A stretch of 64,000 bases of DNA from Solirubrobacterales bacterium (GCA_036496625.1 DASXKW010000011.1:2372-66371), one strand, 5' to 3'. Positions 3,775 through 28,985 are shown, counted from the stretch's first letter. Translations and numbers: made by a program. Notes: generated from the sequence alone by a model not told the origin.

Positions 3775-3784
3775 CTCGGGGCCT

Positions 3785-5005: not shown

Positions 5006-5063
5006 CGCGCCAGTGTATTTGCGCGCGCCTGGGAGGCGTCGGCGGATCGCGCCCGGAGCCGCA

Positions 5064-5810: not shown

Positions 5811-5853
5811 TCGCCGCTCCTTTCGGTTGCTCGCGCCCCCAACTCTCCCAGAC

Positions 5854-7727: not shown

Positions 7728-7792
7728 GTCGATCCGGCCGCTGCGAATGCGCGACAGGGCCTGCTGGACGGCGGCGCGGGCGAGCCGGCTTC

Positions 7793-8611
7793 CTAGGGCG
7801 ATAGGAACCCCCTCGGCCGCCGCCCGTCGGGGTGGGGGAAGGTGTGGGCGCCCTTCAGCTTCAGGCGCAGCGCCTGCGCATAGATCTTGGCGACGACCTG
7901 CAGCGACATCGCCGGGTAGCGGACCAGCATCCGCGCCAGCAGCGGCCCGCTCAGCTCGCGGCGGCGCAGCGAGAGCGTCGCGTCGAAGGCCTTCTGGCCC
8001 CGAGGCGCAACGCGTTGGGCGTCAGGTAGACCGCTGACGCGTTGCAGCGGCCGGGACTCGATATGGACCGTCAGGCCGCTGCCGGGCTCCGTCGCCCGGA
8101 AGGCATAGGTCTGGTCCATCCCCATCAGGGGGGAGACGTGGAGCGCCTTGTCGAGCTCTTCGGCCAGCACGGGTCCCTGACGCCCGTCGCGTGCCAGGAC
8201 ATAAGGATGGCGCTCGCCCCAGGGGATGTTGTTGACGTCGGCGATGATCGCCTCTACCCGCTTTCCGCCTCGGTCGAAGCAGTAGTAGAAGCTGACCGGG
8301 TTGAAGACGTGGCCGAGGAAGCGAAGGTTGGCGAGCAGCCGCACCGGGCCGCCGGGCCGGCAGCCGGTCTGCTCCTCGACCGCGTCGCGGGCGCACTCGA
8401 TGAGCGGGTGTGCGGGATCGCCGATGAAGTCGGGGCGGTGGAAGCGGGCGGGGGCGGGACGGCGTGCCGAGAAGAGCGGGTAGCGATCGAGCAGCCCGGG
8501 CAGCTCGTCGAGGTCGAGGTACATCAGGAAGAGCCGGTAGCGGAAGTCGTGCTCGATCGGCTCGAAGCGCCGGTGGCGGATCCAGCCCTCGTAGACGGCG
8601 GAGGCGGTCAT
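7793..8611 (-). CDS. DUF1365 family protein
   Basis: N-terminus YEGWIRHRRFEPIEHDFRYRLFLMYLDLDEL typical of DUF1365; 4-nt overlap with upstream oxidoreductase. Confidence 0.8.
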   Translation of the reverse strand: MTASAVYEGWIRHRRFEPIEHDFRYRLFLMYLDLDELPGLLDRYPLFSARRPAPARFHRPDFIGDPAHPLIECARDAVEEQTGCRPGGPVRLLANLRFLGHVFNPVSFYYCFDRGGKRVEAIIADVNNIPWGERHPYVLARDGRQGPVLAEELDKALHVSPLMGMDQTYAFRATEPGSGLTVHIESRPLQRVSGLPDAQRVAPRGQKAFDATLSLRRRELSGPLLARMLVRYPAMSLQVVAKIYAQALRLKLKGAHTFPHPDGRRPRGFLSP

Positions 8612-9873: not shown

Positions 9874-9976
9874 CGCAGATGAGTACGGGGCGGATAGCCG
9901 AGCGGATGCATCCGGCAAGAGCCTCGGTGCAACGCTTTTTCGTGGTCATAGGACGAAAACGCGTTACACCTTCCGT

Positions 9977-11239
9977 TCATCCGTAGGGCTTGTAGATCAT
10001 CCGCTGCCCGAGCAGTCCGGTGACGGTGGCGAAGCCGTAGCCGCGGGCACGCAGCGTGTCGATGATCGCCGGCAGCGCCGCGAGGGTGCCTCTGCGATCG
10101 CCGCCGCCGTCGTGCATGAGGATGATCGAGCCCGCCTGGGCGGCGCCGACGACGCGGCTGTAGACGGCGGCGCTGCCCGGAGTCGTCCAGTCGGCCGGAT
10201 CGACGTCCCAGGTGATCGTCCGCAGCCCGTTCTCAGCGGCGGCTGCGATCACCGATGAGTCGACGGCGCCGCCCGGCGGCCGCAGCAGGCAGGGCCTGAA
10301 GTGGGTGATCGACTCGATCAGCGTGGTGACCGGGGCGATGTCCGCGTAGCCCGGGAATTCGGTGTGGTGCATCGTGTGGTTGCCGATCTCGTTGCCTTCG
10401 AGGAGGATCTGGCGCATCGTCGATTCGCGGCCCGCCATCTCCTGGCCGATCTCGAAGAAGGTGCCGGGAACGTGCTTTTCGCGCAGGACCTGGAGGAAGC
10501 CCGCCGTGTATTCGCTCGGCCCGTCGTCGAAGGTCAGGGCGACGGCGTTGCGGTCGCGCGGCCCGTTCGTGTCGAGGCCGGAGGTGCCCCCGGTGCAGCC
10601 GACGGCACGCGCCGGCCGCAGGCGGAAGGTCCGGGCGCCCTGGGCCGGCAGCCTCGTTTCGCAGCTTGAAGCCTCCTTCGCGCCACAGCCTCCGAGGCTG
10701 GCCACCACCCCCCATTGGTAGCGGTGCGGCGCCAGTCCTGCGTCGTCTGGCAGCAGCGCCAGGACCAGCTTCTGCGCGCTCGGCCGCTTCACGGTGACCG
10801 CGAGCGTTTCCTTGCCGATCAGCTCTCCCGCCGCGTTGAGGACCTCGAGACCGATGCGTCGCCGTGCGTTCGTTGTGCCGCCGAGACAGAGCCGTCGCAG
10901 CGCCTTGGTCCCGGTCGGCCGCATCGCCAGGCAGAGGTAGCGTGAGCCCTGCGCCCGCGGCAGCCGGTCGAGCTTGGCGAGCGCAACCGGGCCCGAGGTC
11001 CGCAGACTGAGGATCAGGCGCCTCCCCCTCTGGGAGAGTCGTGCGCGGACCGGCGCGGGTGGCGTCGCCGCAGCGCCGGGCGGAGCCACGGAGGCCGCTC
11101 CCAGCGCCGTGCCGGCGAGGGCAGCGATGCAGATGATCTTGCGAGATCTGGCGATTGAGATGATCCGGCTGATCGATTGGAAAGGCCTGCGCATTATTGC
11201 GCCTGCATCCCCGATCCTCGTCTCGATCGATCCAGACAA
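9977..11239 (-). CDS. Secreted polysaccharide deacetylase (NodB domain)
   Basis: Signal-like segment IICIAALAGTALGAASVA; LTFDDGP...GNHTMHH motifs; start may be Met at 11194. Confidence 0.8.
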   Translation of the reverse strand: MSGSIETRIGDAGAIMRRPFQSISRIISIARSRKIICIAALAGTALGAASVAPPGAAATPPAPVRARLSQRGRRLILSLRTSGPVALAKLDRLPRAQGSRYLCLAMRPTGTKALRRLCLGGTTNARRRIGLEVLNAAGELIGKETLAVTVKRPSAQKLVLALLPDDAGLAPHRYQWGVVASLGGCGAKEASSCETRLPAQGARTFRLRPARAVGCTGGTSGLDTNGPRDRNAVALTFDDGPSEYTAGFLQVLREKHVPGTFFEIGQEMAGRESTMRQILLEGNEIGNHTMHHTEFPGYADIAPVTTLIESITHFRPCLLRPPGGAVDSSVIAAAAENGLRTITWDVDPADWTTPGSAAVYSRVVGAAQAGSIILMHDGGGDRRGTLAALPAIIDTLRARGYGFATVTGLLGQRMIYKPYG

Positions 11240-11486
11240 GCGCGTCTATTTCCGGTACGTCAATGGTATGGGGGTTTCTTTGACCGCGGAGCGTTGCCCG
11301 CTACCGTGTTTCGCGTTGACGTGAAAGCCAGACGCGCTGCGGTGCCAGGGTTCGCCTCACGCTCTTCACGATCTTCTCCGCAATGGCGCTCATCGCGTAC
11401 ATGCCAGCCGCTGCCTGCGCGTTGCCGGACCGATCCGGGGAGTCGATTGACCCCTTGAACCACGAGAAAGATCCGGGTCCCGCTCC

Positions 11487-12578
11487 GTGAGCCGGCGCCC
11501 GGCGGGGGCGCTTGCGGGCATGGCCATGATCTTTCTCCTCGCAACTCCGGGAGGAGCTGTCGCCAAGCGTCCCGACCCGGGCGTTTCGCTCGAGGTGCCG
11601 CAGCCTGCGGTACCGATGCACGACGTCGTGTTGGGCGAGCCCGGCGCTGCGGGGGCGCGGATATCGGCATCCGCGTCGTCGCAGCGCTACTCGATCGGCG
11701 ACGGCAGCGAAGCGACGATCGCCGTCGACGTCACCGCCGCCTGCGCGGAGAGCTGCAACGTGACCGACCCGCAGCAGGTCGCCGACTTCATCGGCACCCT
11801 GATCCACGGCGAAGAGGTCGAACTGCTCACGGTCCAGCTCGACACCGAATACCAGCTCGGCTTCGACTGCGGCTTCGGCGCCGAGGCCTGCTACTTCACC
11901 GGCGAGAACAAGATCGTCATCGGCGGCTACGAAGAAGAGGACGGCGACGGGGCGACCTTCGACTTCGTCCTCGCTCACGAGTACGGGCACCACGTCGCCC
12001 AGCACCGCGAAATGCCGGCGCCGTTCGGCGCCGCGATCGATTGGGGCACCGAGCGCTGGGCCAGCGTCGAGCACGTCTGCCAGGGCCAGCGCCGTGGCCG
12101 TCTGTATCCCGGCAACGAGGGCACCCACTACTTCGAGGATCCCGGCGAGGCCTTCGCCGAGTCCTTCGCCCGCTATCGCTTCCCGGACCTGCCGGTCAAA
12201 TGGAGCTATGCGCCGGCCCTGAAGCCGACCCCGGCCTCGTTCCGGGCGATCCGCGAAGACACCCTTACGCCCTGGCGGGGGCGAACCAGCTTCGTGCTGT
12301 CGGGGCGAGTGCCGGCCAGGGGGGAGGGCGCAGCCGTCGAGTCCCTGCAGACGCCACTCGACGGAACGGTCAGCCTGCGCCCAAGCAGCCTGCGCAGGCG
12401 CGGCTACGAGTTGGCCCTTCGTAGCCGCGCCGGCAGGCTCCTGCGCAGCTCCCGTCATGGCCTCGGCCCCCTCCACCAGATCGACTACACCGTCTGCGGC
12501 CAGTCCCACCTGCGCCTCGTGATCACCTCAACCAAGGCCCAGGGAGGACCCTTCCGCCTCCGAATCCAGCGACCCTGA
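11487..12578 (+). CDS. Secreted hypothetical protein with HExxH zinc-peptidase-like motif
   Basis: Signal peptide MAMIFLLATPGGAVA; FVLAHEYGHHVAQH. Confidence 0.6.
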   Translation: MSRRPAGALAGMAMIFLLATPGGAVAKRPDPGVSLEVPQPAVPMHDVVLGEPGAAGARISASASSQRYSIGDGSEATIAVDVTAACAESCNVTDPQQVADFIGTLIHGEEVELLTVQLDTEYQLGFDCGFGAEACYFTGENKIVIGGYEEEDGDGATFDFVLAHEYGHHVAQHREMPAPFGAAIDWGTERWASVEHVCQGQRRGRLYPGNEGTHYFEDPGEAFAESFARYRFPDLPVKWSYAPALKPTPASFRAIREDTLTPWRGRTSFVLSGRVPARGEGAAVESLQTPLDGTVSLRPSSLRRRGYELALRSRAGRLLRSSRHGLGPLHQIDYTVCGQSHLRLVITSTKAQGGPFRLRIQRP

Positions 12579-12613
12579 GATAATCATCTCCGGGCGCAAG
12601 TCGCCCATCCCTC

Positions 12614-14321
<1,708 letters not shown>

Positions 14322-14471
14322 GATCGCCTCCTCGGTTCCTGGTTCGCTCGGGTCGCCAGCCGCTGCCGGCAAGCGATCCCGGCTCCATCGCTCGGACACG
14401 TTTAGCTCCACGCGCCCGAGATCTCAACAGGGTTGCCCGATCGGCCTGCCGGGGCGGCCGGGCAGCGTCGG

Positions 14472-15404
14472 TCATCGCCGCCTCTCCTTGGCTTCCCGAT
14501 CGTCGCCACCGAGCCAGTCGACCGCCCGGCTCGGGTCGCGAGCGTCGAGGAAGATCGGCGCGAAGGGGCCTTCGCCCTGCAGATCATCGAGCAGGCAGAT
14601 CGAGATTCCGACCTCGGGCGTGCGTGAGAACCGCGGGTCGCTGCGCAGCAAGGCAAGCACGGTGGAGCGGCGCCGCTCGAGCGCCGCCCTGTGGCCGCCC
14701 GTCAGCACGCAGTGGACGGGAGGGAAGAACGGGTAGAGCGAGCGCCACAGCGGTTCGCCATCGGAGCCACCGAGCCGGTACAGCTCCGCGTAGCGCGCCA
14801 GCTCAGCGGCGAGCCGGTCCACGGTGAGCGTGGCGCGATCGATCTCCAAGAAACGCTGCTCGATCGCGACCCCGTCCTCCTCGATCCGCAGGTAGGTGAA
14901 GACGGCGTCGGCGACCAGCCGGCGGCGACGCCGGCCGCGCCCGCGCGAGAGGGGATGGGAAACCTCGTGGCGCCAGGCGAGGGGGCCGAACTCGTCCCCG
15001 CGCTCGCGCGCTGCCTGCATGAAGCAGATCGCCGCGTCGTTGACCGCGAGCGTGTGGGCCTGGAGCGGCCCGGCCGCCTCCTCGGCGCCGATCAGGCGCG
15101 GCGCGTCGTCCAGCACGCCGGCCTCTCGCGCCAGGCTCGCCCCCAGCTCGGTCACATGCCAGAGGCGCCGATGGGAGCGCGGCGACTGCACATAGCCGGC
15201 GAGACCGGCCCGCCCAAGCCGCGCCAGCAGCCTCTGCACCCAGCGCTCGCCCCGGCCCGGGAGGTGGATGGCACGGACCTGGCCGGTGGAAAGGACGCGG
15301 TGCTGAGCGAGCGAGGCGGTTACCTCGATTCCAGCCTCGGTGAGAGCGCCCTGGACGCTCGCGGGCTTGCTCACTGCTTTGGCCTCGTTCCGCCGGGCAC
15401 CCAA
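14472..15404 (-). CDS. Replication-relaxation family protein
   Basis: wHTH-like N-terminus (LAQHRVLSTGQVRAIH...) and overall resemblance to the replication-relaxation family. Alternative GTG start at 15374 forms a GTGA overlap with the upstream stop. Confidence 0.65.
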   Translation of the reverse strand: MGARRNEAKAVSKPASVQGALTEAGIEVTASLAQHRVLSTGQVRAIHLPGRGERWVQRLLARLGRAGLAGYVQSPRSHRRLWHVTELGASLAREAGVLDDAPRLIGAEEAAGPLQAHTLAVNDAAICFMQAARERGDEFGPLAWRHEVSHPLSRGRGRRRRRLVADAVFTYLRIEEDGVAIEQRFLEIDRATLTVDRLAAELARYAELYRLGGSDGEPLWRSLYPFFPPVHCVLTGGHRAALERRRSTVLALLRSDPRFSRTPEVGISICLLDDLQGEGPFAPIFLDARDPSRAVDWLGGDDREAKERRR

Positions 15405-18013
15405 AGCGTCGGCTGGTCGGTCGACGCGCCCTGGTCGTCGGGGTTCGCCGATGCGGGAGCCTCCGACACCACCCCCTCGGTCTTAGCCGCCTTCCGGCGT
15501 CGCTTCGTCAGCTCGGCCAGGATGCGCTCGTCGAGCGTCTCCAGGTGCCGGGTCACCTCGGCGGCCTCGGTCTGTGCCACGGCGCCGCCCAGCGGCACTC
15601 CGCTCCCGGCAGCGGGTAGCTCGGCGACGTCCTCGACCCTGATCCCCTCCAGCGCGAAGGGCTCGCTCAGCTCGCCGCGGTCGGTGACCTGGGCGATGAA
15701 ATGAAAGCGCCGCAGGCGGGTCAGCGCCGCCGGGTCGGGCTTGCCCGCCCACTCCTTGGTCACGAGGGCTGCCGCGCGGAAGTTCATCGTCGTGGCGAGC
15801 AGGTGCGAGCGGTTGGTGGCGAGCGCGGTCAGCGTCTGCGGGTTCAGCCGCTCGGGGTTCTGGTTTAGCACGATGGCCCGCAGGCCGAACTTCGCGCTCT
15901 GCTCCAGCAGCGCCGCGAGGTTGCCCGAGGCGACGCTGTCGTAGGTCTGCACCTCGTCGAGGAAGACCCAGAAGGGCTTGCGCTCCGACCCGCGCCCCTT
16001 CCCCGCGTGCAGCAGGTCGAAGAGCAGCAGATTGGCGACCAACCGCTCATGGACATCGCTCGATCCGGGATGGGCGAGGACGATCAAGCCCTCGTCCATC
16101 GCCTCGCGCGCCCGGTAGGTGCTTTGGCTCTGGCCGAGCAGTGCCGTGATCGGGGTTGAGCCCGAGAGGCGGTCGACCAGGTTGGTGATCGGCGTGATCG
16201 CCTCCTCGGAGAGGCGCGGGAAGCGCTCGGTCCAGAACGCCTGCGATGAGGAGGGCAGGAAGGGCAGCGCAGCCTCGCGCCACCGCTCGCTGGAGAGCAG
16301 CGGCAGCAGCTGAAAGATCGTCGGGCAGAGCTCGGGCGGCAGGACGCGGGCAACGTGGGCCAGCGCCCGCGTCGCCTGCGTGGTCAGGTTGATCGCCCGC
16401 GTCGACTGATCGCCCCACTGCAGGGTCGAGGCGAAGGCGCCGACGATCGCCGCCACGCGCGACTCGACTTCGGCAGCGTTCTTGCCGCGAAGCTCGAAGA
16501 GGTTCCAGCCCGGCAGCTCCCAGGCACCGCTTTCGCTGACGTCGATCTCGACCACCCGCCGCGCCACCTCGGGCTCGGTCAGGTAGGGCTTGATCCGCGT
16601 GAGCGCGTCGCCGTGGGGATCGAGAAAGAGGCCGCCGCTGCCCGAGCGAACCAGGTGGACGAACTGGGCGATCGCCGTCTCGGTCTTGCCGTAGCGGGAG
16701 CGGCCGGCGATGTAGGTGAAGAAGGTGTCGGCGGTGCGGGCGCCGACGATGCGCTTGCCCCGCTCGCCGCTGACCTTGCCCAGCGGGATCAGGTCGGCTC
16801 GGCCTTCCTCGAAGGTCGGCAGCGAGGGCGCCGCCGGCAGCAGCGTGCCCGAGCGCACGACGTTGGTCGAGACGCAGTGGGCGCTCGGCGGCTTCAGGAA
16901 CCCCGCGACCTCACGGGCGGTGAGGACCGAGCGCTTCGCGGGGCGGTGGAGGCCGGTGGCGAGGCGGCGGTCGAAGCCGCGCCGCCGAGTTGGGAAGTCC
17001 GAGCCGAAGAAGACGACCTCGCCCGCCCCGATGCCCGAGGGGCGCAGCCAATTGTGAGAGCGCATTGGCTCGAAGGCGGCGAGCAGGAGCTGCATCGCAA
17101 GCTTCGCGCGCGGCTTCTCGGCCGCTTCGGCGCAGAGCAGGACCTGTGCCTCATACAGCGGTTCGGAACCGCGCAGCTTTGCGTCGAGCGCCTGGCCGAC
17201 CATGCGTCGCTCCAAGAGCGCCGTCGGGTCGCTCTTGCCGCGTCGCGGCCGTTCGTTGTTGAGAATCTCCGTCAGGCTGCGCTTCTCGCCGTGCAGACGC
17301 TTGGCCTGTCGTTTCAACTTTGCGCGCAGGCGAGCGCGGCGCAGTCCGGCGGTCGACAGCAGGTCGACGCAGACGCTGACCTGCTCGCCGTGCTCTGCCC
17401 TCAGCGAGGCCATCGCCGCGGCGAAGGGCTGGAGCGGATCGGGATCGAGAGCGAGCTGGACCAGCGGTTCGATGCTCGGGCGGGCGAGGACCAGCTCGAT
17501 CCGCAGCCGGACGGCCTGCTCCGGCTGCGCAGGCAGCACCTCGGCGACTTCGCGCAGCTCGACACCCTCGTAGTCGCGCAGCGCCGTCCGCAGCAGCTCG
17601 TGCGAGCGGGCTGGGACTTCGAGCAGATAGACGAGGCGCCCTTTCCGGTCGTTGGTCAGCCGCACGCGCAGGGCGCGGGCGCGGCGGTCGAACCAGCCGC
17701 GCAAGCTGCGATCGCTGCGCGCCAGCTCGGCGGCGAAGCGCTGCACCGCCTCGGCTTTCGGGTCGAACTCATCGGCCGGCACCACGGCCACGGCGGTTCG
17801 CGTCGCCAGCGTGCGGCGCGTGGCGCGGAAGCGCTGTGGAGCCAGCGCGGAGGCGATAGCGATGGCGCCGAGAGCGAGGGGCGCGACCGAGGCCGCCGAG
17901 GCCACCAGGTGAGCGGGATGGATGCTCGATGCGGCATGCACGATCACGGCGATCACGAGGAGGGCGAACAGCGCCAACATCGGCCTCGGATCGTGCGGAT
18001 CGACGCCCATCAT
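15371..18013 (-). CDS. TraD/VirD4-like type IV coupling protein (FtsK/HerA-superfamily P-loop ATPase)
   Basis: TM N-terminus (MLALFALLVIAVIV), Walker A GRSRYGKTE, Walker B FWVFLDEVQTY; trimmed to Met-Met at 18013. Confidence 0.75.
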   Translation of the reverse strand: MMGVDPHDPRPMLALFALLVIAVIVHAASSIHPAHLVASAASVAPLALGAIAIASALAPQRFRATRRTLATRTAVAVVPADEFDPKAEAVQRFAAELARSDRSLRGWFDRRARALRVRLTNDRKGRLVYLLEVPARSHELLRTALRDYEGVELREVAEVLPAQPEQAVRLRIELVLARPSIEPLVQLALDPDPLQPFAAAMASLRAEHGEQVSVCVDLLSTAGLRRARLRAKLKRQAKRLHGEKRSLTEILNNERPRRGKSDPTALLERRMVGQALDAKLRGSEPLYEAQVLLCAEAAEKPRAKLAMQLLLAAFEPMRSHNWLRPSGIGAGEVVFFGSDFPTRRRGFDRRLATGLHRPAKRSVLTAREVAGFLKPPSAHCVSTNVVRSGTLLPAAPSLPTFEEGRADLIPLGKVSGERGKRIVGARTADTFFTYIAGRSRYGKTETAIAQFVHLVRSGSGGLFLDPHGDALTRIKPYLTEPEVARRVVEIDVSESGAWELPGWNLFELRGKNAAEVESRVAAIVGAFASTLQWGDQSTRAINLTTQATRALAHVARVLPPELCPTIFQLLPLLSSERWREAALPFLPSSSQAFWTERFPRLSEEAITPITNLVDRLSGSTPITALLGQSQSTYRAREAMDEGLIVLAHPGSSDVHERLVANLLLFDLLHAGKGRGSERKPFWVFLDEVQTYDSVASGNLAALLEQSAKFGLRAIVLNQNPERLNPQTLTALATNRSHLLATTMNFRAAALVTKEWAGKPDPAALTRLRRFHFIAQVTDRGELSEPFALEGIRVEDVAELPAAGSGVPLGGAVAQTEAAEVTRHLETLDERILAELTKRRRKAAKTEGVVSEAPASANPDDQGASTDQPTLWVPGGTRPKQ

Positions 18014-18210
18014 GCACCGACCCTTGGGTGACGTAGGTATGTCGGCAAAACGGGGAGGCCGCAATCGCCGCTGCCATGCGGGAGAGCGCGCATCTCGGCG
18101 CTTGTCGCCCCGACCCGAGGACCGACCGCAGGGCCGACCCCACGCCCGACCTGTCGCTCGACCGCTGGCCGGTTGCCGCTGCTCGCTCTGTTCGCTGCGT
18201 TCTCCACCAC

Positions 18211-18309
18211 TACTACAGAGCAGGCAGCAGCGAAAGTGGACAGTGATTCGCGGCAAGTTTTAGATTCGGCTCTCATATAACTACGGAGCGGCGAGCAGCG
18301 AAAGTGGAC
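18211..18309. repeat. Two ~30-nt imperfect direct repeats (core AGCAGCGAAAGTGGAC at 18226-18241 and 18294-18309)
   Basis: Read directly; they lie in the non-coding gap upstream of the coupling-ATPase gene and flank an AT-rich stretch. Confidence 0.6.
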
Positions 18310-19144: not shown

Positions 19145-19280
19145 CGCGAACGCCGCCACCGCGCTCCTGCGGTTTCTCGAGGGCCGAGGCAGGTGTCGAG
19201 GTGCCCAACCAGCGGGCACCTCGTACCTCCCTGTGGCCTGCGCCTCGGCCCTCGAAAAACCGCAGGAGCGGCTCGCACGG

Positions 19281-19517
19281 TCACTTCGGCTTCGCCTCCT
19301 TGAGGACGTAGCCGCGCGGGCGCTTCTTGGCTTGGCGCACCTTCCCGTCCTTCGTCAGTCGCGCGAGGCAGTTGGCGACGGCGCCGGCCGAGCGCTCGAT
19401 GCCTTTGGCGATCGCGGTGGCGGTTAGCGGGCCGTCGTCCTTGTGCGCGGCCAGATAGGAGAGCACGAGGCCGTCCAGCTCTCCGGGGCGCAGGCGCTTC
19501 GCCTTCGCCGGGCTCAC
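19281..19517 (-). CDS. Small winged-helix DNA-binding protein
   Basis: LVLSYLAAHKDDGPLTATAIAKGIERSAGAVANCLARLTKDGKV resembles MarR/wHTH; 4-nt overlap with upstream gene. Confidence 0.6.
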   Translation of the reverse strand: MSPAKAKRLRPGELDGLVLSYLAAHKDDGPLTATAIAKGIERSAGAVANCLARLTKDGKVRQAKKRPRGYVLKEAKPK

Positions 19518-19927
19518 GCTCGCTCACCCTCTCGCTCGTCGAGGTCGACGAGCACTTCCTCGCAGGTGTCGAGGCCGAGCTGGAAGCGGGCGTCGGTCTC
19601 GGCGTCGGCTTTCTTGGACTCGCGCTCGGTGCCCGACTCCAAGAGCACCTTTTCGGCCTCGCCGTGGAGGCGCTTCAGCACTTCCATCAGGTCGTGGGTC
19701 GGCATCGTCAGCTCGAATGCCTCGCGGTTGTCCTTCGGCTGCCAGCCGATGTCGGCCAGCAGGCGGAAGTCTTCGCCGAACTCGATGCCGAGCCGCTCGG
19801 CGGTGGCGAAGTCCTCGTTCTCCTCCAGCGCGATCCAGACGTCGCCGATCGCGCCGAGGTGGTTGCGGACCAGCTCGTAGAGACCGTCGCGCTGATCGCG
19901 GTCGATCGTCGCGGTGATGCTGGGCAT
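19514..19927 (-). CDS. Acidic hypothetical protein
   Basis: D/E-rich, no recognisable domain; ATG 19927 preceded by AAAGGGGGG. Confidence 0.5.
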   Translation of the reverse strand: MPSITATIDRDQRDGLYELVRNHLGAIGDVWIALEENEDFATAERLGIEFGEDFRLLADIGWQPKDNREAFELTMPTHDLMEVLKRLHGEAEKVLLESGTERESKKADAETDARFQLGLDTCEEVLVDLDEREGERA

Positions 19928-20020
19928 GGCGCCCCCCTTTCGGTAGGGCACCGAAGAGCCGCCTCAGATCAGGGCCGTCGCTCTACCCGAGCACCGAAGT
20001 GCTCTGGGAGAATCGGTCGC

Positions 20021-20045
20021 GCATCGAAGGATGGTTCTTCGGTGC
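20021..20045. promoter_or_regulatory. Palindromic candidate operator GCATCGAAG-N7-CTTCGGTGC
   Basis: Lies in the divergent intergenic region; additional GCACCGAAG copies at 19948-19956 and 19991-19999. Confidence 0.4.
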
Positions 20046-20249
20046 CAGGCCCCGGGGCGTTAGTGCGCCGCCGGGGCCACTATGTCTTGGTCGGCGATGG
20101 ACGTTAGCTCTGCTGCGCGGAGGAAGCGAGCCGATTGCTGTGGATAGGTGCGGATCGCCTGAAGATCGATTCTTCGGTATCGCGTCGGTCGTCAATCGGG
20201 ACATATCCTGTCCTGAATAACCGACTGAGACGACCTGAAGGGGCAGGGG

Positions 20250-22979
20250 ATGACAAGCCCGAAGCAGCATTCCGCCAAGGAGCCACAGCCATACGCGCAG
20301 TTCTGGCGCTGCGATCTGCAATGCCATTCTCCACTCGAGCCCGAGTTCAAGCCCGGCGTTTCCCGCGACGACAAAGCAGCAGTCACAGGGGCTGCGAAAC
20401 GGTATGTCGACGCCGCGGTGGAGCGCGGCTTGGACGCAATCGCGGTTACTGACCACAACTCGGTTGCGTTCCTTAAAGAGCTCATGGCCGCTGCCACTGG
20501 ACGACTTGTCATCTTCCCGGGCATCGAGGTTTCGGCTGCTGACGGCTACCACTTGCTCGTGATATTCGAGATCGGCACTCGCCCCGCGGTGATCCAGGAA
20601 TTCCTTGCCAAGATTGGGATCAAAGCGGGCGAGGAGCGCGGCCCCCAAGGCGAGCCTGTATGCGCAGAGGACGGTTGGAGTTGGGGCAAGATTCTTGACG
20701 AGGTTGCGCGTCGCAGCGATGCGATCGCGATCGCTCCGCATGTACGAAGCGGCAAGGGCATTCTCAAGAGCAGCATTGCCGGCGAGGTGAAGGCTCGCAA
20801 CTGGAAGCACCCTCACCTCTACGCGATCGAGGACAATCGCAAGTCGTTGATCCCGAAAGGGAGCATGACCGACAAGGTCATGCTGAATGAACTCGACGAC
20901 TACCGCAGGGTGCGAGTTCCCGCGCGGGTTTGGGGGTCTGACTGCAAGTCCTATGACGGCTTGGGTTCTGAATGCACCTTCATCAAGATGACTGAGCCCA
21001 GCATCGAAGGCCTGCGTCAGGCATTCCTGGATCCCGGCTCGCGAATCCGCCATCCAGAGGATTTCCAGCTACACGCCCGTGATCGAATCCTGCGCGTGGG
21101 CTGGCAGGCTGGCTTTCTCTCTGAGCAGGAGGTGGTCTTCTCGGAACAGCTCTCCTGTCTAATCGGCGGAAAGGGAACGGGAAAGTCGACCGTGATCGAG
21201 TCCGTCCGATTTGCTCTCGGCAAGGAGCACGTTGACCAACCACTGGCAAGTCAGTACGAGGGCCTGCTTGAGAGCGCGCTCCCGCGTGGCACCAAGATCA
21301 CCCTGGAAGTCGCCCGGCGCGACGGCTCTCGCTATACGGTCTCCCGAACCGAGCCGTATGAGGCGGAGGTCAGCGACGAGACCGGTGTCGCTGTGGATAT
21401 TCCCGCTATCGACACCATCGATCCGACGATTCTCAGTCAGGGGGAGATCCTCTCGATCGCTCGTCGACCGACTTCCCACCTCGCACTCCTTGATGCTTTC
21501 CTCGAGGATGAGTTGTCAGCGCTGCAAGACACGCAAGAGAAGATAGGACGCGACCTCGCACGCAACCGCTCCCAGTTCGTGGAGGCGATTGAGGAACGTG
21601 AGAGCCTGGCGGAGGACCGAAACGAAATCATTCGCCTAAAGGAGGCGAAGAAGGCCTACGACAAACGGGGTCTGAGTGCTCGCACTGAGCAGCGTCGTGC
21701 CCTCGACCGCGAGGAACGCCTCGTCAAAGAGGCGATCGAAGCGGCGTCCGAAGCTGAGGCGGAGCTCGCTGGGCTCGAAGAGGAGGTGGAGTTGCCTTAC
21801 CTCCTGGTTGATAGGGACCTGCCGCACCATGAGCTTTGGAAGCCGCTACACAAACGCTGGCTGAAAGCCGTGAAAGTAGTTGCTGACCTTCGAACCAAAG
21901 GCGCCACCCTCTATGAGGGACTGGCCGAGGAACTAAGACAGATCACGGCAAGCGAGTCGGAGTGGGTCAGATCGATTGCCCGCCAGCGCGAGGAGGTATC
22001 CGCGGTCTACCGCGAACTGCAAGAGGAGTATCCGGATCTAGACCTCGCTCAGTTCGACAGGCTCGACCGCGCGCTTGAGGAGCTGCAGTCACGGATTGAC
22101 GATGGTGCTGGCATCGAGGCGCAGATCTCCGAGCTGTCGGGCAAGCGGCGCAAACTGCTTAAGCGGTTGCGAGAGAACCGCCGAGATCAGTTCCTCTTGC
22201 GAAACGAGTTGGCTGCGGGTCTAAACGAGGCTTTGATTGGCAGCGTCCGCATCGACGTCGAGTTTCTCGGGGACCGCGACAGCGCCCTGGAGCATCTGCT
22301 GGAGCTGAAGAGCGGTGTGCGTCGCGAGGCGTTGAAGCGGATCGTCGAGCACGACGACTTCACCCCGGAGCGTCTGGGAGAGACGCTGGGCAAAGGGGCC
22401 GAGGCGACTGTCGCAACCTTTGGCATTACCGAGGGGCAGGCGTCGACCCTCATCAGCAAGACGAGCATCGCACATAGACTTCAGCTCGAAGAGCTCCTCA
22501 TTCCTGAGCGCGTCGTAATTAACTTCAACACCTCACGACGCGGCGATGATCCTCGCTACCGCAACCTTTTGAATGTCAGTGTTGGCCAGAAGGCGACCTG
22601 CGTACTTCTCATTCTTCTGGCTCAAGACGGTCCACCTTTGATCGTCGATCAGCCGGAGGACGATCTCGACAATCGCTTCGTCTACGACGACATCGTCGAG
22701 CGTCTCCGCGACGTCAAGGACAAGAGGCAACTAATCCTGTCGACCCACAATGCGAACATTCCCGTGTTGGGCGACGCCGAGTTGATCGCCGTCATGGACA
22801 CCGAGGAGCGCAGCGGCAGAACCGCTGGTGTTGTCTCCGACCTCGGCTCTATCGATTCCGCCTCCATTCGCCGCTCGGTTACTCACATCCTTGAGGGAGG
22901 CCGCCGCGCCTTCCGCCGACGCCAGGAAAAGTATGGGGCCCCCGGACTCGACGAAGACGAGCAGCTGGGCAAGGAATGA
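20250..22979 (+). CDS. PHP-domain phosphoesterase fused to ABC/SMC-type coiled-coil ATPase
   Basis: PHP motifs (CDLQCHSP, IAVTDHNS, GIEVSA, IAPH). Walker A GGKGTGKST, Q-loop SQGE, long coiled coil, signature-like SVGQKA, Walker B LIVDQPEDDLD, STHN. Lower G+C than flanks. Confidence 0.85.
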   Translation: MTSPKQHSAKEPQPYAQFWRCDLQCHSPLEPEFKPGVSRDDKAAVTGAAKRYVDAAVERGLDAIAVTDHNSVAFLKELMAAATGRLVIFPGIEVSAADGYHLLVIFEIGTRPAVIQEFLAKIGIKAGEERGPQGEPVCAEDGWSWGKILDEVARRSDAIAIAPHVRSGKGILKSSIAGEVKARNWKHPHLYAIEDNRKSLIPKGSMTDKVMLNELDDYRRVRVPARVWGSDCKSYDGLGSECTFIKMTEPSIEGLRQAFLDPGSRIRHPEDFQLHARDRILRVGWQAGFLSEQEVVFSEQLSCLIGGKGTGKSTVIESVRFALGKEHVDQPLASQYEGLLESALPRGTKITLEVARRDGSRYTVSRTEPYEAEVSDETGVAVDIPAIDTIDPTILSQGEILSIARRPTSHLALLDAFLEDELSALQDTQEKIGRDLARNRSQFVEAIEERESLAEDRNEIIRLKEAKKAYDKRGLSARTEQRRALDREERLVKEAIEAASEAEAELAGLEEEVELPYLLVDRDLPHHELWKPLHKRWLKAVKVVADLRTKGATLYEGLAEELRQITASESEWVRSIARQREEVSAVYRELQEEYPDLDLAQFDRLDRALEELQSRIDDGAGIEAQISELSGKRRKLLKRLRENRRDQFLLRNELAAGLNEALIGSVRIDVEFLGDRDSALEHLLELKSGVRREALKRIVEHDDFTPERLGETLGKGAEATVATFGITEGQASTLISKTSIAHRLQLEELLIPERVVINFNTSRRGDDPRYRNLLNVSVGQKATCVLLILLAQDGPPLIVDQPEDDLDNRFVYDDIVERLRDVKDKRQLILSTHNANIPVLGDAELIAVMDTEERSGRTAGVVSDLGSIDSASIRRSVTHILEGGRRAFRRRQEKYGAPGLDEDEQLGKE

Positions 22980-23130
22980 GACAGGCCGTCGGTCCGGTGG
23001 CTGGTTAATAGGAGGTTTGCAGCTGGCCACACGATGTGGCTCAAGCCGTGTGATTTGTGACGCCCAGGTGTTGGAGACCGGAATTAGCCGCGAAGGTGAC
23101 TCTGGCTCGTCAAATTACCGGCGAATCGAC

Positions 23131-23195: not shown

Positions 23196-25487
23196 TTAGC
23201 CGAGCCGCTCGAACATCAGCGCGATATCGCGGTCGCTGTCGCCGTAATCGGACTCGAGCTCCTCTGCGGAATCCCTCGCGAAGTGTTGACGGTCAGGTTC
23301 GTAGTCGTCGTCCGGATCCTCCTCGGAGAGCAATTCCCGGGCCTCCTCGAATCTCTCGTTGTCCACCGAGGAGTCCAGGCTCATGTAGTGAAATTCGAGG
23401 GTATCGACCTCGTTTGGACCGTCGAGCCAAGCGACTGGGTCGTCGAGGACCTCTTCGAGATATTCCCCGAAGCCTCTGCAGATCTCCGTCCATTCGGCAT
23501 CGCTGAAAAGGTCTGGCACAGCGTCATGGAGCTCGTCAACGCAGCCCCACCTCTCGGGCCCGGAATCCATCTGCTCGACTACCGCTCGAACGATTTCGCC
23601 ACTAGCTGTCAACTCGAAGGCACCGAGTTTCGACAAGCCGGGAAGAAGTCTTGGCGTTGCCGTGTCGACCGGGGCTGAGGTATTGCCGACATCGGACAGC
23701 CATTTCCGACCGATGTCGATCCAGACCTCCACATGATCCGCCAGCTCGGGCGTCTCATTCACATATTTCAAGACGCGCTGGAGCCGACTCTGCAGGACCG
23801 GATGATCATCCCACGTCCACGGAGCGTCCATCAATTCGAAGATCAGGGAGATACCAGATCCTTCGACGACTGCCGACTCAAGCGTTCTACCGAATGCCTC
23901 GCTGAAGGCTCTTGCGAGCCGCGGGGGTGGCGATCCGTCGGTCGGGCTCAGCGCGTTCCACAGCCAGACGACCTGCTCAAAGAAGTGCGCCCCCCGGATC
24001 GCCTGTTCGGCATCGGCGGGACTCGCGAGTAGGTAGTTGCGAAGGAAATCGACAAGGGAAGGGTTTATGAAGGAGAGGTGAGAGTCTGCGCCACCATCAG
24101 AACGGAGGAAGGAGTCATCCAGGACCTCGAGCGAACGGATGAACTGCCTGCCGGCGACGGGTAGCCCTTGCGCCTTGCAGGCACTCTCGAAGGCCGCTTC
24201 GACATCCCGGTCGGATGCCCTCCGGGGTAGCCCCAGCATGGAGGTCAGCATGGCTCGTTCGGCGGCGCCGAGCCCCTGCTCGAACGCATGGCTCCAAAGC
24301 TGCTGGGGATTGTTCAGGACCGAGAGGCAGTAGGACGCGTAATCCTCTTTCTCCTCATCCGAGGGTCGATGGCCTGACCATCCGGTGATCCACTCGATCA
24401 ACCGTGGGTTGTAGCCCTCGTGATCTATGACCTTCAGATAGTTGCGGTCTGCTCGCAGAGAAAGCCGCGCTGTGGCGTCGATCGCATCAGAGAAGTAGAT
24501 GTGGTTATAGAAGATCCGCGCCTTCTCCTGGCGGTTATAGCTGTCGATCGTCAGAAGGAACTTGCGGTCCTCGTTGGCATCCCGGTCCAAAGCCTCCGAT
24601 AGTTGCGTCGCCTGGCGCAGGATGTACTCGCGCGTAGCCAGGACGAATCGTCTCCTTGGCGTGCGCATCACCTTCTTCATCAACTTCAGCAGCTCAGCGT
24701 CGTAATGGCGCGATTCAAAGAGCGCAGTCTGGCCGAGGAAGTCGTCGAAATAGAAGAGCTGCGACTCGTCCTCGACTTCCAACAGCTTCCACGCATCGTC
24801 GAGCCCGCCGGGCGCGATCTCGTAGGGCTGAAAACCCTCCTCCAGGGCGTCTAGCATCAGAAGACGCGCGAGCGTGGTCTTGCCGACTCCTGGTGGTCCT
24901 GCGATGACACAGAGCTTCTGCTGGCGGAGAATCTGTCTCGCGTTGTGAAACGCCTCGGTTTCCACGACTCGCGGCAGCGCTTGCCGCGATTCTTCCAGTA
25001 GAGCGCGGCTCCTTTGGAAGGCGGCCGCGTTCAGTAGTTGCTGCAGCGGACCAGCTCCTGCCAACCAAAGCTTCACATGACGGCTTTCCACGCGGGTGTG
25101 GTTCCGCAGTAGACGGCGCAGATCGTTTTCCCCGTACACATTGTCCACGGAATCGATCCATTGCCCAAGGATTGATGCGATCTCGTCCCTCTGTCGATGG
25201 TTCAGGCGTAGCGAGGTTGCGAACCGGTAAGACCCAAAGCTCGCCCCTGCCGCCTTGAGCTTGGCTGCCTCCACCTTCGCCACTGTCCGCAGCTTCGCGT
25301 AGGTCCCATCGCGGTAATGCTTGCATTGGACCACATGCTCGCCTCCTTCGTCATCGACTGCGAGGACATCGATCCCTCCATCCCGTCCACGGGTTCCGGC
25401 TCTGAACGGGCGCCCAAACTCAGCCCGCATCAGGTCGGCAACAAGCTCCTCAAAGTCGAGGTCGGAAAGTTCGTCGAACTTAGCCAT
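23196..25487 (-). CDS. Mrr-like PD-(D/E)xK nuclease domain + STAND-type P-loop NTPase + helical C-terminal region
   Basis: GGIDVLAV...HVVQCKHY (Mrr_cat-like), Walker A GPPGVGKTT, Walker B LFYFDDFLG, REYILRQA and YNPRLIEW blocks, acidic tail; ATG 25487 preferred over TTG 25511. Confidence 0.85.
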   Translation of the reverse strand: MAKFDELSDLDFEELVADLMRAEFGRPFRAGTRGRDGGIDVLAVDDEGGEHVVQCKHYRDGTYAKLRTVAKVEAAKLKAAGASFGSYRFATSLRLNHRQRDEIASILGQWIDSVDNVYGENDLRRLLRNHTRVESRHVKLWLAGAGPLQQLLNAAAFQRSRALLEESRQALPRVVETEAFHNARQILRQQKLCVIAGPPGVGKTTLARLLMLDALEEGFQPYEIAPGGLDDAWKLLEVEDESQLFYFDDFLGQTALFESRHYDAELLKLMKKVMRTPRRRFVLATREYILRQATQLSEALDRDANEDRKFLLTIDSYNRQEKARIFYNHIYFSDAIDATARLSLRADRNYLKVIDHEGYNPRLIEWITGWSGHRPSDEEKEDYASYCLSVLNNPQQLWSHAFEQGLGAAERAMLTSMLGLPRRASDRDVEAAFESACKAQGLPVAGRQFIRSLEVLDDSFLRSDGGADSHLSFINPSLVDFLRNYLLASPADAEQAIRGAHFFEQVVWLWNALSPTDGSPPPRLARAFSEAFGRTLESAVVEGSGISLIFELMDAPWTWDDHPVLQSRLQRVLKYVNETPELADHVEVWIDIGRKWLSDVGNTSAPVDTATPRLLPGLSKLGAFELTASGEIVRAVVEQMDSGPERWGCVDELHDAVPDLFSDAEWTEICRGFGEYLEEVLDDPVAWLDGPNEVDTLEFHYMSLDSSVDNERFEEARELLSEEDPDDDYEPDRQHFARDSAEELESDYGDSDRDIALMFERLG

Positions 25488-25683
25488 CAGCCCCGATTCT
25501 CGGCAATCCAAGAAGAAAAAGCGTCTTCAGTCGACGGAGGGGTCGCAACTACGACGCGGCAAGCAATCCTGGGCGGGGTCAATCTTGCGATCCCACCGCC
25601 GGAGTCCCTCTTTTGCTGCCGAGGAGCGTGCGGCCCAAAAAGGGGCCAGATCCGGTAGCAGCACGCCCTGCACCCCGCCTCAC

Positions 25684-25750
25684 CCCGGATCTCAATCCGG
25701 CGTCCTTTGACGACTCCTGCCTGTCGCTTCGGCCGTTCCTTCAAATCGGC
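25684..25750. repeat. Degenerate copy of the integrase-tail/att block
   Basis: CGGATCTCAATCCGGCGTCCTTTGACGACTCCTGCCTGTCGCTTCGG aligns with blocks at 27752-27804 and 36888-36940. Confidence 0.5.
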
Positions 25751-27732: not shown

Positions 27733-28262
27733 CCGGAAAGATCCTGCTCAACCCCGAATCTCAATCCGGTGTCCTTTGAGGACTCCTGCCCCGTCGCTCC
27801 CGCTCGTTGAAGTGCCTGGATTTGGGCGAGTTTCAGGCTCCTTTTCTGGCGCTGTCTTGTCCTCCTGACCTCCGGTTGATTGGGCACTGGTGCCCATTGG
27901 GGACCACGCCTCGTCGCCAGCAGCCCTCCCATCCGGGTCTTCGGCTGCATCCCGGTCACGTCGGTGTAGACGCGAAGAGTCATGCGCGGGTCGCGGTGCC
28001 CCATCTGCGCGGCGGTGATCGCAGGATGCTCCCCAAGCTCTGCGCGCAGGGCCGCGTAGGTTCGGCGGAGCGAGTGGAACGTGAGCCCTTCCGGCAGCGG
28101 CGGTCGATCCTCGGCGCCGAGCAGCTCGTTTGCCTTCGTGATCGCCGCGTAGAGGATTTTCGTGCGGACGCTGTTGCGCTCACGCGGCTTCTCGCGGATG
28201 CGACCGGCGAATACGAAGTCGTCCGGCAGCTCGCCAGCCGGATCGAAGGCCGAGATTAGGCA
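27720..28262 (-). pseudogene. Tyrosine recombinase (phage integrase) C-terminal fragment
   Basis: My translation of the minus strand gives ...LTFHSLRRTYAALRAELGEHPAITAAQMGHRDPRMTLRVYTDV (HxLRxT and GH...Y boxes). N-terminal two-thirds absent. The tail reads through the att-like block. Confidence 0.75.
27727..27820. repeat. att-like block B containing exact tRNA-Asp 3' 15-mer (27790-27804)
   Basis: CCCGTCGCTCCCGCT identical to 12675-12689; block homologous to 36865-36953. Confidence 0.8.
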
Positions 28263-28350: not shown

Positions 28351-28755
28351 TCAGCGCAGTAGCTGCACCTTGCACGTCAGGCCGCGGACTTTGGCGGCCT
28401 CTCGGTCGCCGGTCAGGACCAGACTGACCTCTGGGTGGATCTCTGCCGTCGCCAAGATCATGGCGTCCGGCATTCGCAGCGATTTGCGACGAGCGCGGAG
28501 GTGGGCAGCCGTGTCCGCCACATCCATATCGACGGGTAGAACTTCTGAGATCAGGTCGCTGAAGAATCCCTTGACTTGGCGCCCGTCGTGGTGCCCAAGC
28601 TTTGCGCCGGTCAGAACCTCGGCATAGGTCACGACTGAGACGAGCAGTCGTTCTTTGCCAAGGAGATCGCGGATCGCCTTGTCTGCGGCATCGTGAAGGG
28701 CGTCGTTGCGGTCGAGAAAGCCGACGACCGCGTCGGAGTCGAGGACTACCGCCAC
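28351..28755 (-). CDS. vapC: PIN-domain toxin VapC
   Basis: VVLDSDAVVGFL... N-terminal Asp, conserved acidic residues, ~130 aa; overlaps vapB by 10 nt. Confidence 0.85.
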   Translation of the reverse strand: MAVVLDSDAVVGFLDRNDALHDAADKAIRDLLGKERLLVSVVTYAEVLTGAKLGHHDGRQVKGFFSDLISEVLPVDMDVADTAAHLRARRKSLRMPDAMILATAEIHPEVSLVLTGDREAAKVRGLTCKVQLLR

Positions 28756-28985
28756 TCCTCGCGCAGCCCTTCCACGCGCTCGCGCAGGTCGCCGCCAGTG
28801 TCGAGGCAGCCGGAGTAGCGATCGATCAGCTCGTCGATCCGCGTCAAGACGACCCGGCCCGCTCCCTCGGCTTCCACCCTCAACATGTCGCCAGGCTCGA
28901 ACCCCGCCTTGCGAAATGGGGACGCCGGTATCGTCACTTGGTGCTTGCTGGAGACCCGGGTCTGGTTCTTTACCTTCTCAGTCAT
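28746..28985 (-). CDS. vapB: AbrB/SpoVT-type antitoxin VapB
   Basis: VSSKHQVTIPASPFRKAGFEPGDMLRVE swapped-hairpin motif. Confidence 0.8.
   Translation of the reverse strand: MTEKVKNQTRVSSKHQVTIPASPFRKAGFEPGDMLRVEAEGAGRVVLTRIDELIDRYSGCLDTGGDLRERVEGLREEWR

Follow-up and report, generated by a model that had tools for sequence, protein, structure and literature searches.

A 64,000-nucleotide stretch of a Solirubrobacterales bacterium (GCA_036496625.1 DASXKW010000011.1:2372-66371; hereafter the window, with positions counted from its first letter) carries a gene of the TrlF family, trlF, the product of which (hereafter the query) joins an N-terminal PHP phosphoesterase domain to an SMC/Rad50-type ABC ATPase. 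The gene itself is no discovery because the NCBI already names this family, and the main new finding is that the query belongs to a small clade of partnerless ("solo") TrlF proteins, encoded without the TrlG protein that accompanies most of their relatives. We regard the query, with moderate confidence and by analogy with the phage-defence protein Ppl, as a self-contained, nucleic-acid-targeting nuclease that may act in defence or against mobile elements. The gene was defined as follows:

20250..22979, + strand: trlF-family gene, 909 amino acids (aa), ATG start (mechanical open reading frame (ORF) list)

A partnerless clade of the TrlF family

The family takes its name from the temperature restriction locus (TRL) trlR-trlF-trlG of Photorhabdus laumondii (PMC7554251). 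A species scan (one genome per species) placed relatives of the query in at least 592 loci of species-representative genomes, distributed over many bacterial phyla and the ANME-1 archaea, and 80 genome loci were retrieved. A TrlG-like gene (SLFN_AlbA_2 + HATPase_c_4) was located directly downstream of trlF in 64 of these 80 loci, while two of the 16 loci without it were cut by contig ends, which gives 82% of the assessable loci (64/78). Its start lies between a few and ~40 nt past the trlF stop in nearly all paired loci, and TrlG also adjoins trlF in the Yersinia ruckeri and Citrobacter plasmids. Eight apparent trlF-trlG fusions turned out to be artefacts of ORF extension, as a stop codon follows ...KYGF in each of them.

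At the query's locus the downstream gene is convergent and is not trlG, and no TrlG homologue was detected in the 64-kb window (best tblastn match E 0.01, an unrelated 39-aa stretch). TrlG was likewise missing beside every other clade member examined (P0001, P0002, P0007, P0010, P0013, P0019, and P0021; eight with the query); these seven relatives are 50–98% identical to the query, and the clade corresponds to approximately one 50%-identity cluster. As the partnerless state is common to eight members that span 50–100% identity and reside in unrelated neighbourhoods, it is old and stable. Solo trlF genes were also found on Gordonia and Staphylococcus plasmids. No alternative partner emerged from the TrlG-less loci of the family, the downstream genes of which (HEAT repeat, CysS, S24 LexA-like, sigma factor, AAA_15, AAA_5, methylase) are mutually unrelated. 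The missing TrlG is a feature of the system and not of the HMM-defined protein family (HMM, hidden Markov model).

The gene is real and intact

The 909-aa reading frame proposed in the earlier note was recovered in the ORF list, its translation is free of stops over 20250..22979 on the + strand, while stops interrupt the complementary frame many times, and a purine-rich, Shine-Dalgarno-like box (GAAGGGG) is located 7–13 nt 5' of the ATG. Homologues were searched in a 90%-clustered collection of 5.8 billion proteins; it contained 1356 homologues of the 909-aa protein at E ≤ 1e-10, and 1496 related 50%-identity clusters were obtained at E ≤ 1e-30. The ORF is thus a real gene, far beyond chance expectation. 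A scan for sigma-70 promoters around trlF gave no match, and terminator-like matches around the gene were no more frequent than expected from shuffled sequence.

Compared with a 98%-identical relative, the ratio of non-synonymous to synonymous substitution rates (dN/dS) was 0.11 (single-hit differences: 45 synonymous, 16 non-synonymous), and the PHP domain (aa 16–270) contains just one of the 18 amino-acid changes. The gene is under purifying selection and displays no signs of decay. This bears on the possibility that the query is the orphaned half of a TrlF-TrlG system, either decaying or dependent upon a TrlG-like effector from another part of the genome. The high frequency of pairing speaks for such an origin, as does the mapping of the Photorhabdus growth-arrest phenotype to TrlG (PMC7554251), but the intact gene, the low dN/dS, the conservation of all catalytic columns, the partnerless state held in common by eight clade members, the absence of a TrlG homologue from the window and the solo genes on plasmids of other genera point the other way, and we consider an orphaned gene improbable.

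Family assignment

The query was compared with the NCBIfam HMMs, with the following outcome:

NF045780, TrlF family AAA-like ATPase: 484.3 bits against a cut-off of 350, E 1.2e-144, passes
NF042955, Ppl: 216.1 bits against a cut-off of 1000, fails; best stretch residues 17–653
NF045781, Spaf_1101: 220 bits against a cut-off of 475, fails

The match to NF045780 extends from end to end (residues 15–896 on positions 2–944 of the 944-position model), and the query is 31–36% identical to most of the TrlF family. The best match in PADLOC was Ppl (PDLC02208; 1.5e-50, 170 bits), a partial one with its best stretch at residues 52–658. By profile, the query is therefore assigned to the HMM-defined TrlF family and is a relative of Ppl rather than a member. 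Both resemblances had been raised in the earlier note: the one to TrlF-family proteins holds over the full length, whereas for Ppl, which is reportedly the single-gene anti-phage system of Gao et al. 2020, the homology (full-length, with a common DQPEDDLD) stood and the membership did not, in view of the low score and the non-canonical PHP motifs.

Domain architecture and fold

Architecture was analyzed on alignment A1 (the query and 107 homologues of 878–950 aa, 108 collinear sequences in total), on an AlphaFold2 model of the whole protein computed from the family alignment (mean predicted local distance difference test (pLDDT) 90.0, predicted template modelling score (pTM) 0.79) and on a separate model of residues 1–285 (pLDDT 92.5, pTM 0.90). 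The following parts were recognized:

20295..21059, + strand: PHP-fold phosphoesterase domain, alpha/beta, aa 16–270 (AlphaFold, Foldseek, family profile)
21084..21464, + strand: ABC ATPase N-lobe, aa 279–405 (Pfam AAA_23; SMC3, Smc and Rad50 heads by profile and fold)
21165-21191, + strand: Walker A, G306-G-K-G-T-G-K312-S-T314, K312 invariant in A1
21438-21440, + strand: Q-loop, Q397, invariant in A1
21468..22232, + strand: antiparallel coiled-coil insertion, aa 407–661 (AlphaFold secondary structure)
aa 662–750: helical insert of ~85 aa (AlphaFold secondary structure)
22500..22937, + strand: ABC ATPase C-lobe, aa 751–896 (Pfam AAA_21)
22578-22592, + strand: signature, S777-V-G779-Q780-K, with S777, G779 and Q780 invariant in A1
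22638-22670, + strand: Walker B/D-loop, L797-I-V-D800-Q-P-E803-D-D-L-D807, with D800, Q801, P802, E803 and D805-D807 invariant in A1
22740-22751, + strand: H-loop, S831-T-H833-N834, H833 invariant in A1

A PHP phosphoesterase and an SMC/Rad50-type ABC ATPase are joined in this protein, the ATPase being split by a coiled coil of ~255 aa, and every PHP, Walker A, Q-loop, signature, Walker B, and H-loop motif quoted in the earlier note was found in the translation. Profile searches of the kind it had proposed were positive for the ATPase, with AAA_23 (36.6 bits) and AAA_21 (36.4 bits) both over the cut-off of 27, while SMC_N (34.6 bits, cut-off 40) and the Pfam PHP model (PF02811; 22.3 bits, gathering score 26.4, residues 49–104 only) remained under theirs. 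Since the Pfam PHP score is below gathering, the PHP assignment relies on the family profile and on Foldseek. The family profile matched the PHP phosphoesterases 9etk and 3e0f at ~5e-8, as well as 7ug9, 2yb1, and 3f2b, and all 15 significant Foldseek matches of the PHP-domain model in the PDB (E ≤ 1e-3) are PHP folds, among them PsfC, Endonuclease Q (EndoQ), BVU_3505, the PHP domain of DNA polymerase III (Pol III) alpha, RNase AM, BAD_1165, and Cv1693 (E 9e-8 to 3e-4, template modelling (TM) score 0.43–0.59). In a single-sequence search of the PDB the sole PHP match was marginal (2yb1, E 0.0075). For the ATPase identified in the earlier note, the family profile matched the SMC3 head at 2.6e-8 and the full-length model folds like the heads of Smc, MukB, JetC, RecN, condensin, cohesin, Rad50, and RecF (Foldseek against PDB, E 4e-12 to 1e-6). 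No solved structure of Ppl or TrlF was among the top matches listed in the PDB sequence and fold searches.

The coiled coil had been put at ~350 aa, a length that the model revises to ~255 aa of long helices (419–471, 480–508, 527–565, 571–593, 599–618, and 622–661) followed by the helical insert. Its apex (aa 509–526) is a short loop, and the stretch between aa 305 and 783 is free of cysteine and hence of a CxxC zinc hook; the coiled coil has neither an SMC hinge domain nor a Rad50-type CxxC hook at its apex. It is also the least conserved part of the protein (23% identity to the rest of the family), and within the clade identity decreases from 60% in the PHP domain to 54% in the ATPase N-lobe and 46% in the coiled coil.

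Probable remodelling of the PHP metal site

The conserved motifs of the PHP domain were located by alignment:

20313..20327, + strand: motif I, D22-L-Q24-C-H26 (canonical D-x-H-x-H; context C21...S)
20448..20552, + strand: motifs II/III, T67-D-H69-N and P90-G-I-E93...H101, with T67, H69, P90, G91, E93 and H101 invariant in A1
20739..20741, + strand: conserved histidine H164, invariant, aligned with the AAH of 3e0f
20940..20948, + strand: motif IV, D231-C-K233 (canonical D-x-H), D231 invariant

In the family profile, H101 is aligned with a metal-binding histidine of 9etk and 3e0f. The query was further aligned with the annotated E. coli Ppl and the annotated Y. ruckeri TrlF:

E. coli Ppl: motif I FDFHNHTPASH, motif IV GSDAHH
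Y. ruckeri TrlF: motif I ADFHLHT, motif IV GCDAKQ
Query: motif I CDLQCHS, motif IV GSDCKS

We take the metal ligands of the trinuclear site of YcdX to be H7, H9, H15, H40, E73, H101, H131, D192, and H194. Under this numbering, the query retains equivalents at H26 (H9), H69 (H40), E93 (E73), H101, H164 (H131), and D231 (D192), while Q24 stands in place of H7 and K233 in place of H194, the position of H15 being non-conserved. The earlier note had pointed to glutamine in place of the first histidine of motif I, and this substitution is there; it is not the sole departure from the canonical site, as the lysine of motif IV and the H15-equivalent differ too.

Q24 is present in 103 of the 108 aligned close matches. 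Of 139 cluster representatives from the family, 81 have it, and across all 139 motif I takes three main forms:

Q-x-N: 75/139 representatives
H-x-H: 46/139 representatives
Q-x-H (the form of the query): 5/139 representatives

Motif I reads A-L-Q-V-N in most TrlF proteins (D22 to A, H26 to N). The residues equivalent to H69, E93, H101, H164, and D231 are nearly invariant in the 139 representatives whatever the form of motif I, and residue 233 is lysine or arginine in the clade of the query and in the paired proteins closest to it, histidine in Ppl, and variable elsewhere. The Q-x-N form and the presence of TrlG did not correlate cleanly, 13 Q-x-N loci being also without TrlG.

As judged from these alignments, the motif I glutamine is a lineage trait of most of the TrlF family and not a private oddity of the query, and the pattern as a whole suggests that the metal site of the PHP domain was remodelled by degrees within the family. 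Throughout, the beta-metal site (E, H, H) would be intact, the alpha site would have exchanged a histidine nitrogen for a glutamine or asparagine oxygen, and the third site would have been lost, its electrostatic role being possibly assumed by the lysine or arginine in the query clade. Because the ligand and ATPase residues are invariant, the PHP domain is 60% identical within the clade and dN/dS is low, catalytic competence of the PHP-ATPase protein is plausible.

The altered ligands could instead mean that the PHP domain is not a nuclease but a small-molecule phosphatase (with, for example, pAp, nucleoside bisphosphates, or a signalling nucleotide as substrate) or a dead sensor, with the ATPase and its coiled coil as the functional core. 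The best sequence-level relatives of the domain are phosphoesterases of the COG0613 type, Cv1693 (a 3',5'-nucleoside bisphosphate phosphatase) and RNase AM, three canonical ligands are missing, and motif I is further degenerate in the 75 representatives with A-L-Q-V-N. The fold matches also include E. coli Pol III alpha, the PHP domain of which has lost catalysis. However, the query clade keeps H26 and all six ligand-equivalent residues are conserved, Q24 is itself conserved instead of drifting, the PHP domain is among the best-conserved parts of the protein within the clade, and the DNA endonuclease EndoQ is among the top fold matches. In addition, the PHP domain of Ppl is described as an exonuclease in a review (PMC12904381). 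All in all, we give little credit to a PHP domain without nuclease function.

The ATPase active site

In the ATPase, the Walker-B aspartate is followed by a glutamine that is invariant in A1 (D800-Q801-P-E803; Q801 codon at 22647-22649), and the usual catalytic glutamate is not there. The equivalent of Q801 is glutamine in 135 of the 139 family cluster representatives, and DQPEDDLD is identical in the query, E. coli Ppl, and Y. ruckeri TrlF. A head of this kind would fit a nucleotide-sensing or slowly hydrolysing ATPase, in line with what has been reported for Ppl, and E803 could serve as the catalytic base.

Genomic island and neighbouring genes

The gene resides in an island of ~16 kb (~12.6 to ~29 kb of the window) at a tRNA-Asp gene, the main features of which are:

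12614..12687, + strand: tRNA-Asp (GTC), probable left edge of the island (ARAGORN; Rfam tRNA 72 bits)
12633..14411, - strand: large serine recombinase, Resolvase + Recombinase + Zn_ribbon_recom (Pfam 7e-26, 2e-17, 3e-10)
14472..15404, - strand: Replic_Relax protein, element backbone (Pfam PF13814, 8e-24)
15371-18256, - strand: 961-aa island-backbone protein, between the Replic_Relax and helix-turn-helix (HTH) genes
19281..19951, - strand: two small divergent genes, a 78-aa winged-helix protein and a 145-aa protein of unknown function (weak Pfam winged HTH)
23196..25511, - strand: Mrr_cat nuclease + nSTAND3 NTPase (nucleoside triphosphatase), 771 aa, convergent with trlF (Pfam nSTAND3 6e-45, Mrr_cat 4e-8)
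28351..28985, - strand: VapBC-like pair, PIN + MazE/AbrB-type antitoxin (Pfam MazE_antitoxin; PIN from precomputed annotation)

The guanine-cytosine (GC) content drops from ~0.70 to ~0.60 over 19–29 kb and returns to ~0.69–0.70 after ~29 kb, and the GC content at third codon positions is 0.71 in trlF compared with 0.87–0.94 in the flanks, where the genes are those of an ordinary chromosome (an FtsH-like protease, a polysaccharide deacetylase, an aminotransferase, an aldehyde dehydrogenase, and a sulfite/nitrite reductase-like protein). The intact tRNA-Asp overlaps the 3' end of the opposite-strand recombinase ORF by 55 nt, which suggests that the island integrated at tRNA-Asp and regenerated the 3' part of the tRNA. 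A search with a 10-nt seed for a second, directly repeated copy of the tRNA-Asp 3' end gave none at the right edge, the right boundary being an approximate one (~29 kb) taken from GC content; a missing att-type repeat is compatible with a serine recombinase. The sole match of the 961-aa protein was a weak mad8-like one in PADLOC (41 bits, residues 506–819), with nothing in Pfam or NCBIfam, and the protein could be the transfer or replication ATPase of the element. Genes for several HTH proteins, as well as MerR-like and Xre-like genes, are also carried by the island.

The neighbours of trlF within the low-GC segment are of defence type. The Mrr_cat-nSTAND3 protein, with its Mrr-type restriction nuclease domain at the N terminus, corresponds to the PADLOC single-gene defence candidate PDC-S73 (388 bits), and we regard its gene as a separate Avs-like STAND defence gene rather than an operon partner of trlF; the VapBC-like pair is situated near the right edge of the segment. 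The island also contains a 40-nt direct repeat (25682-25721 and 27751-27790, 93% identical) with the palindrome CCGGAT-CTCA-ATCCGG inside, and its copies are located just 5' of the minus-strand starts of the Mrr_cat-nSTAND3 gene (25511) and of a 71-aa ORF (27723). This repeat may serve genes of the island cargo as a common operator or promoter element. The two small genes that precede trlF were considered as candidates for TrlR and rejected, having no similarity to the 79-aa protein in the TrlR position of Y. ruckeri.

The locus of the 98%-identical trlF, which comes from another metagenome (L095), is 96% identical in DNA to the window from 19260 to 23042, and the two small upstream genes are kept beside trlF in it. 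Identity stops ~60 bp past the trlF stop (at 3780 in L095, from 23042 onward in the window), after which L095 carries small ORFs, NTP_transf_2, and the type I restriction-modification (R-M) genes hsdM/hsdS in place of the PDC-S73 gene, a switch that marks a recombination breakpoint for cargo exchange. The neighbours of the other clade relatives (integrases, a conjugative module with TrwC and a type IV secretion system (T4SS), toxin-antitoxin pairs, GmrSD, SNIPE) are different at every locus. A conserved core gene in syntenic surroundings, which the earlier note had named as a finding that would speak against its proposal, is not what these variable, mobile-element contexts look like, and trlF is foreign-composition cargo in a horizontally acquired island, beside defence-type genes. 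On the Citrobacter IncC plasmid NZ_CP026233.1, the gene order over 2197-13164 of the locus is hsdM-hsdS-trlF-trlG-hsdR, with trlF-trlG placed within a type I R-M operon. The anticodon nuclease PrrC is likewise located inside the EcoprrI hsd locus.

Such surroundings might also suit a protein that serves the element itself, i.e., an end or hairpin processor (a single-chain analogue of SbcCD/Mre11-Rad50) in transfer, integration or replication, or a factor of plasmid exclusion, with phage not being the target. A nuclease-type domain joined to a Rad50/SMC-like head with a coiled coil would be appropriate for this task, one clade member is encoded between a TrwC relaxase and a T4SS coupling protein, another directly after an integrase, family members bear the Gene Ontology (GO) term "double-strand break repair" from NCBI's annotation pipeline PGAP (by inference), and most of the plasmid records with a homologue are of conjugative plasmids (826 of 1147). 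On the other hand, trlF is not fixed in any element backbone and its neighbours vary by locus, it resides in the low-GC cargo apart from the backbone of host-like GC with the recombinase and Replic_Relax genes, and the closest relative studied by experiment, Ppl, protects against phage. For these reasons we hold a role in the service of the element to be rather unlikely.

Proposed function and mechanism

The mechanistic background comes from Ppl, which gives phage protection and was called uncharacterised in 2024 (PMC11482910). In a more recent review, Ppl is described as an NTP-inhibited 3'-5' exonuclease on single-stranded DNA (ssDNA) that senses 3'-OH ends, with NTPs inhibiting through both the PHP and the NTPase domains and activation following from nucleotide depletion together with 3'-OH ends (PMC12904381); the primary reference, as cited in PMC13434339, is Xu et al., Mol Cell 2026. 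The remark in the earlier note that the mechanism of such fusions had yet to be worked out is thus outdated for Ppl, for which a 3'-5' ssDNA exonuclease is reported, and still fair for TrlF.

For a self-contained, Ppl-like nuclease we propose the following sequence of events. Two ATPase heads would dimerise around nucleotide, and the coiled coils could form a Rad50-like clamp that engages DNA, probably at DNA ends. Nucleotide binding at the DQPE-type site would regulate the fused PHP domain rather than fuel rapid turnover, and the PHP domain would then degrade the nucleic acid of the invader. Its site would probably be binuclear, with Q24/H26/E93/D231 forming the alpha and E93/H101/H164 the beta position, and with K233 standing where the histidine of a third metal would be. 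In the paired majority, the downstream TrlG (AlbA_2/Schlafen-like + HATPase_c_4) probably provides the toxic or effector activity, wholly or in part, which would be consistent with Photorhabdus suppressors occurring only in trlG, while the solo clade would have no effector but the PHP domain.

Several points weigh against this proposal. The founding TRL study assigned no function to TrlF, its suppressors were recovered only in trlG and none in trlF, and phage was not considered (PMC7554251). PADLOC v2 has no dedicated TrlF or TrlG model, so that the defence role is argued from Ppl homology and association only, and we found no literature linking the temperature restriction locus to phage or AlbA_2 + PHP to defence. 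Of the nine metal ligands of a canonical PHP site, the query lacks three (at Q24, K233, and the H15-equivalent), so that its domain could serve for binding or sensing and not as a hydrolase, and with glutamine after the Walker-B aspartate ATP turnover may be slow or absent.

The origin of the family name raises the further possibility that the query is a regulator of growth or temperature restriction, as in the Photorhabdus TRL, and has no defence role. A temperature up-shift induces the TRL operon, mutants without it can grow at 36 °C, and loss of function of trlG (Alba_2 + HATPase_c_4) has the same effect (PMC7554251). That phenotype depended on TrlG, which is missing here, and no role was found for TrlF (PMC7554251), while the patchy, mobile, and R-M-embedded distribution of the family fits a defence module; we infer that auto-activation of such a module at high temperature would be a side effect. 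A purely regulatory role is, to our mind, highly improbable. Should the defence role of TrlF hold true, the temperature restriction phenotype of Photorhabdus may be a case of defence-system auto-immunity.

An extension of the proposed defence function to the whole family is tentative and, with all of its parts taken jointly, rather doubtful. The TrlF family would then be a widespread, uncatalogued immune module distinct from Ppl, present in at least 592 species genomes and 1496 clusters, usually with TrlG and sometimes in type I R-M operons. Its PHP domain would have been remodelled stepwise, from H-x-H...D-x-H (Ppl, three-metal) through Q-x-H...D-x-K/R (the query clade) to Q-x-N (the majority); the probably two-metal PHP domain of the solo Q-x-H clade, with lysine at the third position, would be the sole active effector nuclease, and the Q-x-N majority would have passed catalysis to TrlG.

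PHP-ATPase fusions are already recognized as single-gene phage defence (Ppl), and automatic annotation as well as a defence link exist for the family and the architecture. What the query adds is a testable question in metalloenzyme evolution, namely the graded loss of PHP ligands alongside a strictly conserved glutamine, and the solo clade offers the simplest system for asking whether a Q-x-H/D-x-K PHP domain still cuts and what a DQPE-type ATPase adds to it.

Comparison with known systems

The founding TrlF and the members of NF045780 have the same architecture and length (~875–945 aa) as the query. The Y. ruckeri plasmid gene, which was named a homologue of Photorhabdus trlF (PMC7554251), encodes a protein 24% identical to the query that has in common with it a D-x-K/R motif IV, DQPEDDLD, the THNANIP H-loop, and the C-terminal tail LEGG..AF..R..KY, whereas its motif I is the canonical H-x-H in place of Q-x-H. 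The founding locus has TrlG directly downstream and the small TrlR, and the query is without either.

Ppl resembles the query in being a single gene on mobile elements that encodes a PHP domain and an ABC/SMC-like ATPase, with homology over the full length and common Walker A, Q-loop, signature, and DQPEDDLD motifs, although E. coli Ppl (WP_015059139) is only 22% identical to it. Ppl has canonical PHP motifs (FDFHNH, a histidine at +5, GSDAHH) in which all nine ligand positions are plausible, while the query is altered at three metal-ligand positions, with Q24, K233, and no third-site histidine; the H-loop reads SHSAPIV in Ppl and THNANIP in the query. Anti-phage experiments and a reported mechanism are on record for Ppl and not for the query. 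The Spaf_1101 family is a third sister of this superfamily, and its C-terminal ATPase lobe aligns well with that of the query (residues 757–895).

In architecture the query resembles a single-chain Mre11-Rad50. As in Mre11-Rad50/SbcCD, a coiled-coil ABC ATPase is combined with a metal-dependent phosphoesterase nuclease, and Rad50 heads are found among the fold matches, a likeness that may serve as a working analogy for ATP-gated engagement of DNA ends. The nuclease differs, being a separate calcineurin-like subunit in Mre11/SbcD and a cis-fused PHP (TIM-barrel-like) fold in the query, and so does the ATPase, since compared with Rad50 the coiled coil is much shorter and lacks the CxxC hook, and Walker B reads D-Q-P-E instead of D-E. 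The ATPase lobes are also weakly but significantly similar in PADLOC to those of LmuB (Lamassu), AriA (PARIS), PtuA (Septu), and GajA (Gabija), and AriA and PtuA are among the PDB matches of the family profile. These ATPases are without a PHP domain, and the likeness is confined to the P-loop and signature regions; as a pair, TrlF-TrlG resembles the arrangement of PARIS (AriA), Lamassu, Septu, and Gabija, in which an ATPase controls a separate effector.

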